Source: an uncultured Candidatus Saccharibacteria bacterium (GTDB lineage Bacteria > Patescibacteriota > Minisyncoccia > UBA6257 > 2-01-FULL-56-20). From it: DNA of 64,000 nucleotides. The DNA is taken from NCBI GenBank assembly GCA_964387675.1, contig CAYLWL010000001.1, positions 144,874 to 208,873 on the forward strand. Direction: 5' to 3'. Position numbers: made by a program. Each line of letters begins with the position of its first letter. Position 1 is the stretch's first letter. Shown here in pieces: positions 48,001-63,000 of the stretch.

Positions 48001-51000
48001 GGTTTTGGCCGGCATCAAGGAGATTATTCTCATAGTGAACCCGATTCATCGGCGGCATTTCGAGCGTTATATCCGCCTGAACCGATCGAACTTCCCCGGC
48101 CTTTCGTTCCATATTCGCGAACAGGCAACGCCAGGGGGCAATGGCCACGCCATCGTTCAGGCCCATGACATCATTGGCAGAGAGCCCTTCGTAGTCAGAT
48201 TTTGCGATGATGTGATCTTGAGCAGGCCATCCGTCATTTCATCGCTTATTGCGCTTTTCAGGATCCACAAGTCCCCAATTCTTCTTTTAGAGAGGGTGCC
48301 AAAAAATCTTGTTTCTCGGTTCGGCGTTGTCGGCGTGAGCAGAGTCAAGAAAAGAATCTATAGGATTAAAAAGATTGTCGAGAAGCCGAAGTTCGCTCTT
48401 GCTCCCTCAAATCTCACTATCGTGGGGGGATACGTCCTTACCCCGAGCATTTTGCGGAACCTAAAGAGCGTTGCCGATACATTGCCGGTTATCGCCGACG
48501 ATGCGTTGCCGCTTGCCGTTGCGTTACAGATCGAGCTTATTGTGGGAGGCAGGGTTTATGGCTGGGAGTTTCCAGGGAAGCGGCTCGACTGCGGCACGCT
48601 TGAGAAGCTCAAAAAAGCGGAAGAATTCTTAAAAAAGAGACAGGTGACAGGTGACAAGAGACAATGGACGACGAACGAGTAACAAACAACAAGTCGCAAG
48701 AGGATTTCGCCTCATGTCACATGTTGCTTGTCACGTATCGCTCCTTGACTCTTGACTCTTGACTCTTGATATCTGATACTAATCAACAATGTCTGCCGAG
48801 AACTTTAGTCAATTTATCCACAAAAAGGCCTATGAAATTTGCTACGCGGTTTTCAGGATGATCCTCGGCGTGAAGCACGCCGGTTTTGCGGCCCATCTTG
48901 AGGATAAGGGGTTGTTGCTCCTCGCCTCGGCCGTGAGCGACGATTACGAAAGAGCTCTTTCGGCCTCAAAGTCGCTCGAATACCTTCTCCGCATGGGTGC
49001 TGATGTCAATATTTTGAACACAATTAACGCGGACCTTGTATCAAGTGAGTTGATGCAATTTAATTCGGCAATTGCCGACCTTAAAAAGTCCGAAAGTCCG
49101 TTGCCGGTTGATCTGAACGATATCTTCTCAAAACTTCCTGCGGTTTCCACAGAAGACCGGGGCGGCGCTGTTGCGGATCGTGGTTTTAGCCGATCGATGG
49201 TAGAAGCGGCACCCAAGAGTGGACTTGTTCCTTCGAATAATAACGGTGGGGTGAGAGCGGCAATGCGGCAGGCATCGATTTTGGAGAAAATCCGGCAATC
49301 AGATAGTTGCCGATTAAAGGATTTGCAGGATCATTTTATGGAAGCAAGCGAAAGAACCATTCGATATGACATTCAAGACCTCATAGAAAGAGGCCTTGTC
49401 GAGCGACTAGGCAATGGGGGGCCTTCTACTTACTATAAGGCAAAGGAACAGCAAACATACGAATCGTAGTAACCTTTGGCTGTACCCGACGTTATAAATA
49501 TTGCTTAGCCGAAGAGGTGGTTTATCCACAGATTTGCTCTTGGCTGGCTAGTGTATAATTTCATATAGGTTCGGAGTGAGGCCGAACAAAGAGTAATCGC
49601 GAATAACGCTAATTGTTAGGTAATAACGCGAATCCGTTATTAGCATTATTTGCTGGCATTCGTGTTATTAGCGAATACTCCGTTGCCTCGCTTTGAACAG
49701 CGAGTTTTTTCATCTTCACCCTAGATATTTACCCCCCGCTTTCGTTCAGTTCTCCGCCGTTGTCCTCACCGACGATTTGGAGGTCGAAATTGATGAATGT
49801 GGGTTTGCAGATGCACTTAAATTAAAAGGTCGACGACCAAATCTACTAACTATAGGTCGATAAACATCAAAACTAAAAATAACAATGAATACATTAAGTC
49901 ATAAACTAGTTTCGATCGCTCTCTCGGCAACGACCTTGGTGTCTTTGTCGGGTGCGATTCTTCCGGCAGTTGCTCATGCGCAATCCACGTCTGATCTTCA
50001 GGCGCAGATTGCGGCGCTTTTGGCGCAGATTCAGCAACTCCAGTCGCAACTGAACGCACAGCAAGGCGGCGGAGCATCTTCTTCTTACAACTATACTCGC
50101 GACCTCACCGTGGGTAGCAAAGGGGACGATGTAACTGCTTTGCAAAATCTCTTGGCAAGCAAGGGATACTTTACGGTAGCCGCGACAGGATACTTCGGTC
50201 CGATTACAAAAGCGGCGGTAGCCGCATGGCAGGCCGCCTCTGGCATTTCTCCGGCAGCCGGTTACTTTGGCCCGAAATCGAGGGCTGCGGTAGCGGCGAT
50301 GGCGGGTCCAGCGGCTCCAGCCGCTCCGGGAGCTCCAGTAGGAGTTCCGGCGCCAAATGCTCCGGCATCCGGCTTGGTGGTCAGTTTGGCTTCAGACAAT
50401 CCGGCTCCGGGATCATTGATTCCCAGTTCTTCAAGGAACAAGGTATTGAACGTTACCTTTACTGCCGGCGTTTCTGGTCCAGTTACCGTCTCGGAAGTTA
50501 AATTCAAGAAAGTGGGCGTCCTTTCGGACAGCTCGGTTTCGGGAGCTTATCTTACCGAGGCAGGCAAGGTTCTTGCCCAGTACAACTCGATCTCCGGCGG
50601 TGTTCTTAACTTCTCTGGATTGAGTTTGGCGGTGCCGGCAGGGCAGTCGAGGACATTCGGTCTTCAGATTGACCCGGCGGCAGGCCTTTCGGCGGGAAAC
50701 ACCGTCAGCTTCTCGATTGAATCCGCAGCGGACGTTACGTCTTGGGACGCAAGCAATGTCGCGGTCAACGAGTCCGGTTCGTTCCCGGTCAAAGGCAACA
50801 TCTTTACCGTTACCACGGTTTCGAACCCGAGCTTGGCGACTCTCACCGTCGCGTCTTCCTCAATCGGAACGAACGTTACGGCTGGGACGAACAACAACTT
50901 AATCGCCGCTTGGAGCTTCACGGGCGCAAACAGCAGAATCAACCTTTCATCCCTTAACTTCAAGGTTATTGGTTCCGCCACAAAGACGGACATCAAGAAC

Positions 51001-60000: not shown

Positions 60001-63000
60001 GTTTCCGTGACTTCCGGTTCAACTACCGGTTCAAAGGTGTATGCCGGCCCGGCGCTTGATCCGGCGAAAAAGTATATCGTAGAAATTTACGGTTCGACGA
60101 CAAGTCAGGGCGCTTCATACATGGCAATGGTCAAAGACCTGCAAACATTCTGGGTTGCGTCCTCGACGGCTTCCGGAGCATCCGGCTCATCGCTCGCCGA
60201 TCTTTTGGAATCGTTGCGATCTTTAGTCGCGGCTTTGCAAAAACTTCAATCATCGGCTCGGTAGACCCGCGCGTTTTTTCGTGCTAGCATTGGTTTTGGC
60301 ATGACCTCGAGATTGCTTGTGAGAATAATAGTTTCTCTGGTTTTCTTCGTGCTTATCGGCACCCCGCTTTTTTATCTCAAAACCGCGGTCTATCCGTATA
60401 TCCTTTCGAAGACGATCTTTTTCCAGGCGCTTGTGGAAATTCTCTTTTTTCTTTGGCTTGTTTTGATTGCCTTCGAGAAACGTTTTCGCCCTCGGCCGAC
60501 TCCGCTTCTGAAGACATTGCTTGTATTCCTCGGGGCTTTGTTTCTCTCCGCTCTTTTCGGCGAGGATTTTCATAGGAGTTTCTGGTCTACGTATGAGCGC
60601 ATGTTCGGCGTTTTCGCCATTTTTCACTTCGCGGCATTGGCGGTCGTCATTTCCTCGCTGATCGCGGAAATTCCGTGGCGGAAACTCTTCTACGTTTCTC
60701 TTGTCGTGTGTTTCGCGGTGAGCGTGCTCGCGGCTATTCAAATTCGAACTTCCGGCCTGCTCTTGCCGGGCGAGCCGGGCGGGAGGCCCGGCGCCACCTT
60801 CGGGAACCCGACCTTCTTCGCCGGCTATTTGGTGTTCCATATATTTATCGCTCTTTATTTTCTACTTGATGCATATAAGCGCAACAATTTTTTCTTGCCG
60901 ATCGGAGCTTCGAGAGTTTCTCAAAAAGGAAAAGTTGCTGCGCTGTTGCCCATTTTCTTTTTCGGGGGCAGTTTGGCGTTCAGTTTATTTGTTCTCGCTC
61001 TTACCGAAACGAGAGGCGACATATTGGGCCTCGGCGTGGGCGTATTTGTTCTCTTGATACTCTTTGTCCTCAAGCCGCCTGCCCTTTCTGTTCGCCCCGG
61101 CTTTCTCGGGGGCGGGAGTCGCGTTGAAGCGCTTGCGCCCGGAAGCATCTCAAAGAGCCGCAGGATTTACTTGGGGTTTATTGCCTTCATCGTGGTCATG
61201 GGCGCCGTGTTTTGGTTTACTCGCGGCAGTGCGGTGTGGTCCCGCGTTCCCGGCGCAAGCCGGTTCAGCGACATTTCTTTTTCGAGCTCCGGCCTGCAGC
61301 CGAGATTGGTTGCCATAAAATCATCGTGGCTGGGATTTCTTGACCGGCCGCTCTTTGGTTGGGGGTGGGAAAACTTCAATGTCGTCTACAACAAATATTA
61401 TGATCCTCGCACCCTGGAGTTGAATTACGAAGAAACGCGATTCGATAAGCCGCACAACTTTTTTATGGAAGACCTGGCGACCGGCGGAATAATTCTTACG
61501 CTCGCCCACCTCGCGCTTCTTGCGTTGCTCGTTACGACCGCTCTCAAATTGAAAGACGTAGTTTTGGGGCAAATCATAACTGCCGCGCTCGCCGCCTATT
61601 TTGTGAGAAGCATTTTTATCTTCGACACTGTCGGGCCGGCATTGATGCTCTACACGTTCTTGGGGCTCGTGGATGGCTGGTCTCGGGAAGAGTCCGTGGA
61701 AGAAAAAAAGTTCGGCAATGGCCAGGGCAAAAAAATACCTTTGTTTGCCCTGCTTCCGGCCACGCTCATTGCTCTTTTCGTCCTCTACCAAATCAATATG
61801 CCTACGGTTCGCGCCTCTCGGCTGGAGTATGACGCTTTCACCGACCTCTCGCGCGGCAGGCCTCTGCAGGGCATAGAAAACTTCAAAAAGATACTTGCCT
61901 TGCCCACGCCATACCGGTGGAACTTTGCGCGAGATTTTTCATCCGCCATCTCAACCGCCTACTTCTACAACAACGATGCCATTCCGCAAGAAGCCGCTCT
62001 CGAGGCGATTCGGGAAATGGAGAGAGTGGTGCGCGAGCATCCGAGCGACGCGTACAATCACTACACGCTCGTCGATATGTACAATCAAGTTGCCGACCTT
62101 GACCCGAACTTTCTGAATCTGGCGGAGCAAGAAGCGGCAGAAGCGCTTCGGTTGAGTCCCGATCGGCAAGAAGTGTATTTTTCTTTGGCGAAGACAAAGA
62201 CCTTGAGGCGTGATTACGGGGCGGCGCTCGAAGTTTTAGAGAAGGCCCTGGCTTTGGACGATAAGGTGCCGGATGCACACTTTTATTATGGCGTTGTCGC
62301 GTACGCCGCTGGCGATTACGCGACCGGCTATCGGGAGCTGAAGATCGCCATACAGATGAAGCGGCAGTGGAAAAACTTCTACGAACCGAGAACGGTTGCC
62401 AACTTTTTTGCCGACTCCGGCCATCTCGACGAGGCCATTGAACTCTATAAACAGGCGCTGGATTTGGGGCCGGACGAAGCGGAAACCAAAATTAAGCTCG
62501 GGATCGCTTACTTTTACGCGAATCGATATGATGTGGCGGCCCAGTATCTCCGGGAAGCCGGCAAGCAATTCGATTTCAAAAAGAGCGCCTCGTATCCGAC
62601 GTTGAGACCGATTCTCGAAAAGCTGGGAATTGCTTTTTGAGATACGGCATTGATTCTGCTATACTATAAGCAAGGCAAAAAGGTCGAATTCTATGAGACA
62701 TGAGACAAGAGACATGAGACAAGCGGGCGTAAACCCTGTCGCCTGTTGCTTGTCACTTGTTACTAATCTATGACAAAAGCCCAATTAAATGAAGCGGTAA
62801 TGAAAGCCGCCGGTATGACGACCAAAGCCGAGGCGGAAAGGGCCGTTGAAGCGGTCTTCGACACCATCGTGAAAACGATGAGCCGAGGCGAAGAAGTGGC
62901 TATCACCGGTTTCGGCACGTTCCGTGTCGCGAAGCGCGCGGCTCGCATGGGGAGGAACCCAAAAACAGGCGAGAGCATACAGATTAAGGCCTCGGTGAAG

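Follow-up and report, generated by a model that had tools for sequence, protein, structure and literature searches.

What does an O-antigen ligase do in a bacterium that is not expected to possess lipopolysaccharide (LPS)? This question is raised by a locus in a stretch of DNA of 64,000 nucleotides (contig CAYLWL010000001.1, positions 144,874 to 208,873), here called “the window,” in which four open reading frames (ORFs), P1 to P4, are located on the same strand and fill positions 49885-62640, as a first-pass annotation of this DNA had reported. P4 is the ligase-like enzyme and is composed of a Wzy_C domain and a C-terminal tetratricopeptide repeat (TPR) domain, and P1 is a giant surface protein with a peptidoglycan-binding domain. 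The best reading of the data, to which a probability of roughly 0.5 was assigned, is that of a locus of the surface-layer (S-layer) type with en bloc O-glycosylation of P1 by the Wzy_C-TPR enzyme. The central features are the following:

48789..49469, + strand: DeoR-type winged helix-turn-helix (HTH) protein, 226 amino acids (aa), Pfam HTH_DeoR with E=5e-8
49885..53361, + strand: P1, 1158 aa, conserved surface protein and proposed acceptor
53406..53439, no strand assigned: GC-rich palindromic hairpin, 15 bp, just past the P1 stop codon
53511..56669, + strand: P2, 1052 aa from the likelier ATG, apparently a genome-specific insert
56719..60264, + strand: P3, 1181 aa, paralogue of P2
60301..61815, + strand: membrane domain of P4, 13 transmembrane helices, WaaL-like GT-C fold
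61816..62640, + strand: C-terminal TPR domain of P4 (residues 506-779), predicted to be extracytoplasmic

P4 was 100% identical to an [quoted passage not shown] at NCBI (GCA_016204365.1) and P1 was identical to a “peptidoglycan-binding protein” of Candidatus Liptonbacteria, so that the host is a bacterium of the Parcubacteria and thus of the Candidate Phyla Radiation (CPR). Among the GTDB and NCBI records with a Liptonbacteria-type locus (L012, L013, L016, and others, L049, and P0132), several bear the title “uncultured Candidatus Saccharibacteria,” and the titles “Thermoleophilia” and “Armatimonadota” occur once each; all of these are probably labeling or binning errors. The host is presumably an ultra-small groundwater bacterium without an outer membrane, a monoderm. 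Genes for lipid A/LPS, lpxC and kdsA among them, were reported to be missing from Parcubacteria, the construction of the cell surface in CPR/Patescibacteria was called unclear, and a glycosylated S-layer was suggested for Parcubacteria in general terms only (PMC5220378). No LPS genes were found in the window, and the literature searches turned up no publication that connects O-antigen-ligase-like genes with surface proteins of the CPR.

The product of 60301-62640 is indeed, as first annotated, a polytopic protein of 779 aa with a Wzy_C domain followed by C-terminal TPRs. The hidden Markov model check with Pfam gave Wzy_C (PF04932) at residues 225-402, which corresponds to nucleotides 60973-61506, with E=9e-16 and 58.4 bits against a cutoff of 31.7, plus TPR matches at about residues 600-756. 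A profile search with full-length P4 was swamped by TPR matches, and the NCBIfam scan returned weak TPR matches only and no ligase or oligosaccharyltransferase equivalog. An AlphaFold (AF2) model reached a predicted local distance difference test (pLDDT) score of 89.8 and a predicted template modeling score (pTM) of 0.87. Its fold was polytopic and similar to that of WaaL from Cupriavidus metallidurans (7TPG/7TPJ), which was recovered by the fold search only; a sequence search of the membrane domain against the PDB gave no match.

R238, R335, and H385 (codon 61453-61455) of P4 aligned with R215, R288, and H338 of Escherichia coli WaaL in a weak hhalign alignment (E=0.017) and, independently, in a MAFFT alignment. 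The three WaaL residues are essential and match R224, R298, and H349 of PglL (PMC3643930). The candidate catalytic residues of P4 were invariant in 54 homologues and in paralogues, and were kept in all TPR-type copies tested (L026a/b, L037, L048, and L040). The topology, derived from the helices of the model and the positive-inside rule, comprised 13 transmembrane helices with the N terminus inside, and all loops obeyed the rule. This places the large catalytic loop, residues 308-386 (79 residues), on the outside, in agreement with the extracytoplasmic position that had been proposed for it; because of the 13th transmembrane helix, the TPR domain should be located outside as well, so that it and the catalytic loop share one membrane face. 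Many residues of this TPR domain were invariant across the 54 homologues, and the domain as a whole was strongly conserved. As judged from the model, P4 has a true WaaL fold and qualifies as a Wzy_C enzyme, its catalytic residues are intact, and its TPR domain is predicted to be extracytoplasmic.

A full scan of 1.84 billion representatives yielded relatives of P4 at E<=1e-30 that amount, at the 50% identity level, to at least 1,535 sequences. Many were full-length (about 720-790 aa) with 27-37% identity, and the named ones came from the Parcubacteria group and Harrisonbacteria. The family duplicates readily (L026 7664-12241, L037 8555-12235, L048 8528-12028, and L071 4405-14126), with tandem TPR-type copies of 42% identity in L026 and four Wzy_C genes around P1 in L071.

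Which gene accompanies the enzyme gene was examined in 38 informative close loci drawn from GTDB species representatives. In 35 of them, the gene immediately preceding the enzyme gene encoded a P1 orthologue of 1108-1175 aa (44-62% identity); 31 of these cases were full and 4 were at a contig edge. Two of the three exceptions, L037 and L048, were second enzyme copies in genomes that also possess the canonical pair, adjacent to a plain Wzy_C protein of 413 aa and to a PMT_2 GT-C enzyme, respectively; in the third, L040, other PG_binding_1 surface proteins preceded the enzyme gene. At an enzyme identity of 39-54%, a whole block was syntenic, composed of HtrA, ClpB, a protein with seven transmembrane helices (7-TM), a GalU-like protein, DeoR, P1, P4, and HU. 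Since the synteny of close relatives could simply be inherited, distant metagenome loci were fetched by using an alignment of eight sequences. A P1 orthologue (36-47% identity) was present immediately upstream in 10/10 informative distant loci with an enzyme identity of 26-34%, including two loci with changed flanks: L056, with alanyl-tRNA synthetase (AlaRS) upstream and an LTD-domain protein downstream, and L057, with the GalU-like gene on the other strand. The enzyme gene was persistently linked to the gene for a giant peptidoglycan-anchored surface protein, a candidate substrate gene that is adjacent and in the same orientation, as is typical of protein O-oligosaccharyltransferases though not required of them.

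A DeoR-type winged-HTH gene was located directly upstream of every P1 orthologue examined, including those in slots without an enzyme gene and those with rearranged flanks (L050, L051, L055, and L056). The conserved unit is the order DeoR-like gene, P1, Wzy_C-TPR gene, and the DeoR-type protein may regulate P1, upstream of which lies a spacer of about 415 bp. The part of the block preceding this unit is also present in the window:

47106..48682, + strand: conserved upstream block with the 7-TM protein (47106-47825) and the GalU-like UTP-glucose-1-phosphate uridylyltransferase (47867-48682)

P1 starts with a signal peptide, a helix (36-59), PG_binding_1 (80-139), and an Ala/Pro linker (141-156), followed by about six Ig-like beta-sandwich domains. 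PG_binding_1 was the only Pfam match, with neither FN3 nor a beta-helix. The AlphaFold model, built from 42 homologues (pLDDT 79), displayed a three-helix peptidoglycan-binding domain, a disordered Ala/Pro linker, and the beta-sandwich domains, which matched Ig-like arrays in Foldseek (PrgB, alpha-2-macroglobulin, and integrin legs). Sequence self-comparison revealed no internal repeats. Full-length orthologues with 36-66% identity occurred across Parcubacteria. Among 16 taxa, composed of the window and 15 relative loci, the mean Kimura distance of P1 was 0.69, compared to 0.94 for the enzyme, 0.97 for the GalU-like protein, and about 1.5 for the DeoR-like and 7-TM proteins. Surface proteins are not usually conserved to this degree, which points to a possible structural role.

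The hairpin at 53406-53439 was read as an intrinsic terminator, which would be bidirectional by symmetry. A GC-rich hairpin was found in the predicted fold of the P1-to-P4 spacer in 29/29 relatives folded, usually followed by a U-run as read by eye. With this strong hairpin terminator behind it, P1 should be its own transcription unit. P1 is a secreted, peptidoglycan-anchored, well-conserved protein encoded by a monocistronic gene, with structural matches to generic Ig-like arrays only.

The first-pass annotation had described P1 to P3 as three alike proteins, each with a signal peptide, a coiled coil, PG_binding_1, a Thr/Pro linker, FN3 domains, and a beta-helix. All three indeed carry a signal peptide, an N-terminal helix, and PG_binding_1, which constitute the only part shared by P1 with P2 and P3, at 31% identity; FN3 domains and the beta-helix are confined to P2 and P3, and the linker of P1 is not of the Thr/Pro type. 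The reported richness in Ser and Thr held, with 24-26% Ser plus Thr in P1-P3 as against 10% in a comparison set of 33 proteins from elsewhere in the window, and these residues were spread across the folded domains instead of being gathered in linkers. N-x-S/T sites numbered 30, 21, and 17 in P1, P2, and P3 compared to 22.5, 13.8, and 12.3 expected; as a clue for glycosylation this excess was dismissed, since it mostly follows from composition and has no bearing on an O-linking enzyme. Recognition of Thr/Pro-rich linkers by the TPR domain of P4 was also rejected: the linker is Ala/Pro in P1 and hypervariable in the orthologues (A/P, PTN repeats, NP repeats, or S/T/P/K), whereas the TPR domain is strongly conserved.

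P2 contains a signal peptide, a coiled coil, PG_binding_1, a Thr/Pro linker, FN3, a right-handed beta-helix, and an FN3-like domain. Pfam matched PG_binding_1 and FN3 in P2, the beta-helix region of which aligned to P3, and PG_binding_1, three FN3 domains, and Beta_helix (PF13229) in P3. An alternative start of P2 is the TTG at 53394 (1091 aa), with the ATG at 53511 being likelier, and the true start of P3 is probably M15, the ATG at 56761. The two genes share a direct repeat of two 100% identical copies (local alignment score 1236, all matches):

53559..54794, + strand: direct repeat copy 1, 1,236 bp, N-terminal half of P2
56815..58050, + strand: direct repeat copy 2, 1,236 bp, N-terminal half of P3

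Of this organism, three public short-read assemblies, independent of one another, break off inside the repeat, past which the identity between the two genes falls abruptly. This pattern suggests recent gene conversion or a swapping of C-terminal “heads,” in the manner of cassettes, on one shared wall anchor. No P2/P3 orthologue was located between P1 and the enzyme gene in any relative examined, so that P2/P3 look like a genome-specific insertion. A search with P3 gave no full-length orthologue and was dominated by matches to FN3 repeats. Proteins with PG_binding_1 plus a beta-helix had no Wzy_C neighbor in 2/2 look-ups elsewhere, and proteins of the P2/P3 type were therefore rejected as general companions of Wzy_C enzymes. 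The core of the original proposal, O-glycosylation of adjacent surface proteins, survives these results with P1 alone as the partner, and not with three beta-helix proteins.

A glycan donor would be needed for this reaction, and the window contains an island of nucleotide-sugar, glycosyltransferase, and methyltransferase genes:

293..41227, no strand assigned: sugar island
11577-12782(-), 14482-15750, 21966-23120, 25265-27082, 32409-34277, and 35967-38315: tailoring and fusion genes of the island, for C-methyltransferases, a carbamoyltransferase, a B12-binding radical SAM enzyme, and a GT9-GT1 fusion

The island encodes heptose-type functions (GmhA-like, heptose-7-phosphate kinase-like, and GmhB fused to a nucleotidyltransferase), further sugar enzymes (GMD, a DegT aminotransferase, and RmlC), and glycosyltransferases (GT10, two GT2, GT4, and the GT9 fusion). 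It is unusually rich in tailoring enzymes, with three C-methyltransferases, two FkbM proteins, CmcI, a carbamoyltransferase, and the B12 radical SAM enzyme; the GT9-GT1 fusion has 782 aa. The island had been placed immediately upstream of P1, and this did not hold: about 8.6 kb of housekeeping genes is located in between, encoding a class-V aminotransferase, HtrA, ClpB, the 7-TM protein, the GalU-like protein, and the DeoR-HTH protein. The island is a possible source of the donor, with an indirect link to P1-P4. In several distant relatives, genes for glycan synthesis follow the enzyme gene directly:

L065, after the enzyme gene: second Wzy_C (448 aa), GDP-mannose dehydratase, reductase, GT11 fucosyltransferase, GmhA-like SIS protein, C-methyltransferase, RmlD
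L062, after the enzyme gene: second Wzy_C, epimerase, UDP-glucose dehydrogenase
L070, after the enzyme gene: second Wzy_C
L072, after the enzyme gene: GDP-mannose dehydratase
L071, after the enzyme gene: three further Wzy_C, several GT4, deacetylase fusion, Wzx-type flippase, Bac_transf initiating phosphoglycosyltransferase

The content of L071 thus represents a full set for a lipid-linked pathway of the Wzx/Wzy type, and the genes that follow the P4 homologue of L065 directly resemble those of the island of the window. Concerning the glycan supply, the complete or partial Wzx/Wzy-type clusters of relatives mirror the content of the island, which retains this part of the earlier proposal with the island itself connected only indirectly.

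The following mechanism can be proposed from these data. P1 would be secreted and held on peptidoglycan by its N-terminal coiled coil and PG_binding_1, from where it would project the chain of about six Ig-like domains outward. A glycan would be assembled on undecaprenyl-pyrophosphate (Und-PP) and flipped across the membrane to its outer face. P4 would transfer it en bloc by means of the R238/R335/H385 site in the large outside loop while the fused extracytoplasmic TPR domain holds the acceptor, most likely Ser or Thr (or Tyr) residues of P1; further wall-anchored proteins, P2/P3 among them, may serve as acceptors too. The locus would then work like the slg loci of Geobacillus and Paenibacillus. 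The data show the fold, catalytic residues, and topology of P4, its gene linkage, and the glycan clusters of relatives; the donor, the acceptor, and the glycan composition are inferred.

Several observations weigh against O-glycosylation of P1. That any protein is glycosylated here, and that the acceptor is a protein and not a lipid or a wall polymer, is also something we infer. Foldseek with P1 gave no known S-layer protein and no beta-helix either. P1 ends in a strong terminator, and the P1-P4 pair is therefore not an obligate operon. The three look-ups starting from P1 (L050, L051, and L055) all revealed a DeoR-P1 slot without an enzyme gene; second enzyme copies exist in other contexts (L037 and L048); and the slot downstream of P1 takes other inserts, namely, P2/P3 in this genome and GIY-YIG genes in two relatives, L008 and L055. 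The mirror-tree comparison of P1 and P4 over 16 taxa gave a raw r of 0.57 and a partial r of 0.06 after control for ClpB, so that no signal of coevolution beyond shared phylogeny was found. The P4 gene of this window is not inside a glycan cluster, and no phosphoglycosyltransferase (PGT), Wzx, Wzy, or ABC exporter was found in the 64 kb, which contains only three polytopic membrane ORFs; the first-pass annotation had already seen no Wzx or Wzy polymerase. Finally, the PglL_A (PF15864) domain, for which a check had been recommended, and Wzy_C_2 (PF11846) were both missing from P4 in the Pfam scan at E<=0.01. These domains are also missing from TfpO and TfpM, and the sequence of the Wzy_C core cannot separate O-oligosaccharyltransferases (O-OTases) from ligases, according to a review of 2025 (PMC12645811).

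P4 may instead ligate an Und-PP-linked polymer to a nonprotein acceptor, either a membrane glycolipid, such as a lipoglycan of the lipoteichoic acid type, or a wall polysaccharide, and P1 would then be a mere neighbor or a product-binding protein. This is the strongest of the alternatives and nevertheless rather unlikely. It has a precedent in TacL, a Wzy_C enzyme of a monoderm that joins teichoic acid chains to a glycolipid (PMC5727136), and it agrees with the occurrence of P1 without P4 and with the missing coevolution signal. The GalU-like gene conserved in the block would supply UDP-glucose for glycolipid anchors, and TPR domains also scaffold polysaccharide machinery; PilW, BcsC, LapB, and LpoP were among the weak TPR matches of P4. 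However, TacL has only about 400 aa and no TPR, teichoic-acid-type genes were seen neither in the window nor in the clusters of relatives, and the adjacency to P1, which persists at an enzyme identity as low as 26% and where the flanks have changed, could only be coincidental.

Alternatively, P4 may be the Wzy-type polymerase of the pathway, with the shorter Wzy_C paralogue known from relatives or an unrelated enzyme acting as the ligase or oligosaccharyltransferase. The Pfam family Wzy_C covers polymerases too, the PDB entry that was the best structural match to P4 is titled “polymerase/ligase,” and two to four Wzy_C genes are located side by side in relatives, among which the roles must be divided. 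This explanation is nevertheless improbable: the gene for P4 is the only Wzy_C gene in this window and is of the TPR type, P4 retains the WaaL triad and has just one large loop on the outside, and a fused outside TPR domain is a feature of WsfB, a predicted S-layer O-OTase, while PglL also has a C-terminal TPR motif (PMC2943079). A single insertion of the enzyme gene into a recombination-prone slot downstream of P1 and subsequent inheritance, with no functional link, is the least probable explanation, since it could account for the other inserts in the slot, for the synteny of the whole HtrA-ClpB-...-HU region in close relatives, and for P1 and HU being adjacent where P4 is missing, but hardly for an adjacency that outlasts rearranged flanks at 26-31% enzyme identity (L056 and L057), glycan clusters that accrete at the same spot in several lineages, or the other PG_binding_1 surface proteins that precede the enzyme gene in L040.

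O-glycosylation of P1 by P4 can be extended in two directions. P1 may serve much of the Parcubacteria as the principal envelope or S-layer-like coat protein, with the Wzy_C-TPR enzyme as its dedicated oligosaccharyltransferase; this wider claim is doubtful at present. In a more radical version, the enzyme could couple a glycan or a protein to a peptidoglycan-linked acceptor whose use is not known from any enzyme of the WaaL family.

Other features were noticed around the locus. GIY-YIG endonuclease genes recurred in slots around P1 (L008 9577-9864, L055 12498-12764, and L051 5817-6056), which suggests an insertion hot spot. The 7-TM protein of 239 aa, with its seven transmembrane helices, is encoded by a gene that overlaps the 3' end of clpB and is kept in the syntenic block; it had no match in Pfam, NCBIfam, or the PDB even at E=10. 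Downstream of the locus, 63103-63861(-) encodes a conserved secreted helical protein of 252 aa without a family match, and its counterpart in relatives adjoins a gene for a protein of about 158 aa and the gene for an extracytoplasmic function (ECF) sigma factor; it may therefore be part of an anti-sigma or envelope-stress module. No RNA family was detected when the window was scanned with Rfam.

Organisms of the CPR are attached to other cells or depend on them, which makes the surface central to their biology. The pair of a surface protein and a glycan ligase recurs across the sampled lineages of Parcubacteria and is a concrete, testable candidate for their main surface glycoconjugate. It also indicates that the label “O-antigen ligase family protein” in organisms without LPS may hide a different acceptor. 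Should the enzyme be a promiscuous O-OTase with a built-in acceptor-binding TPR domain, it could be useful for glycoengineering, and if P1 were a coat protein, the unit of DeoR, P1, and Wzy_C-TPR would be the first molecular handle on the undefined CPR cell envelope.

How the locus compares to known systems depends on the acceptor. WaaL of E. coli and of C. metallidurans (7TPG/7TPJ) uses lipid A-core, which is not expected in Parcubacteria (PMC5220378), and P4 differs from WaaL by the extra 13th transmembrane helix, the outside TPR domain of 270 aa, and an identity of only 16-18%. TacL from Streptococcus pneumoniae, an organism without LPS, is a Wzy_C enzyme as well and passes an Und-PP-linked polymer on to an acceptor located at the outer membrane face (PMC5727136), as proposed for P4; TacL has 397 aa, no TPR, and a glycolipid acceptor, compared to the 779 aa and the TPR domain of P4. 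The O-OTases PglL, PglS, TfpO, and TfpM share the Wzy_C core with P4. In the case of TfpO, TfpM, and PglS, the substrate gene is usually a neighbor of the O-OTase gene (PMC12645811), and the genes for these enzymes and for many PglL homologues are adjacent to a candidate substrate gene in the same orientation, as is that of P4 (PMC3643930, PMC12645811). In contrast to PglL and PglS, P4 is without PglL_A and Wzy_C_2, the candidate substrate is not a pilin, and the host is a monoderm.

The closest counterparts are the slg loci of Geobacillus stearothermophilus, with WsaB and the TPR protein WsaA, and of Paenibacillus alvei, with WsfB, which reside in monoderm hosts as does the locus described here. 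WsaB and WsfB are Wzy_C proteins, and WsfB has a C-terminal TPR domain; the predicted O-OTases of these loci thus combine Wzy_C with a TPR domain, either fused at the C terminus or on a neighboring protein, a feature that P4 shares according to their published description (PMC2943079). S-layer genes are monocistronic and often located beside the slg cluster, and the gene for P1 is likewise monocistronic; S-layer glycans that contain heptose exist (PMC2943079). The slg locus of P. alvei includes galU, and a GalU-like gene is part of the conserved block here (PMC2943079). The lipid-carrier glycan of the slg systems is made by a PGT, glycosyltransferases, and an exporter (PMC2943079), a set that is complete in L071 with a flippase, partial in L065 and L062, and missing from this window. 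The slg enzyme gene is located within the glycan cluster, unlike the P4 gene in this window. The lattice-forming targets of the slg systems are anchored by SLH domains, whereas P1, a candidate S-layer-type protein, would be anchored by PG_binding_1 and consists of an Ig-like chain without similarity to known S-layer proteins. Taken together, the locus should represent a mechanistically known type of system in a lineage with an uncharacterized envelope.

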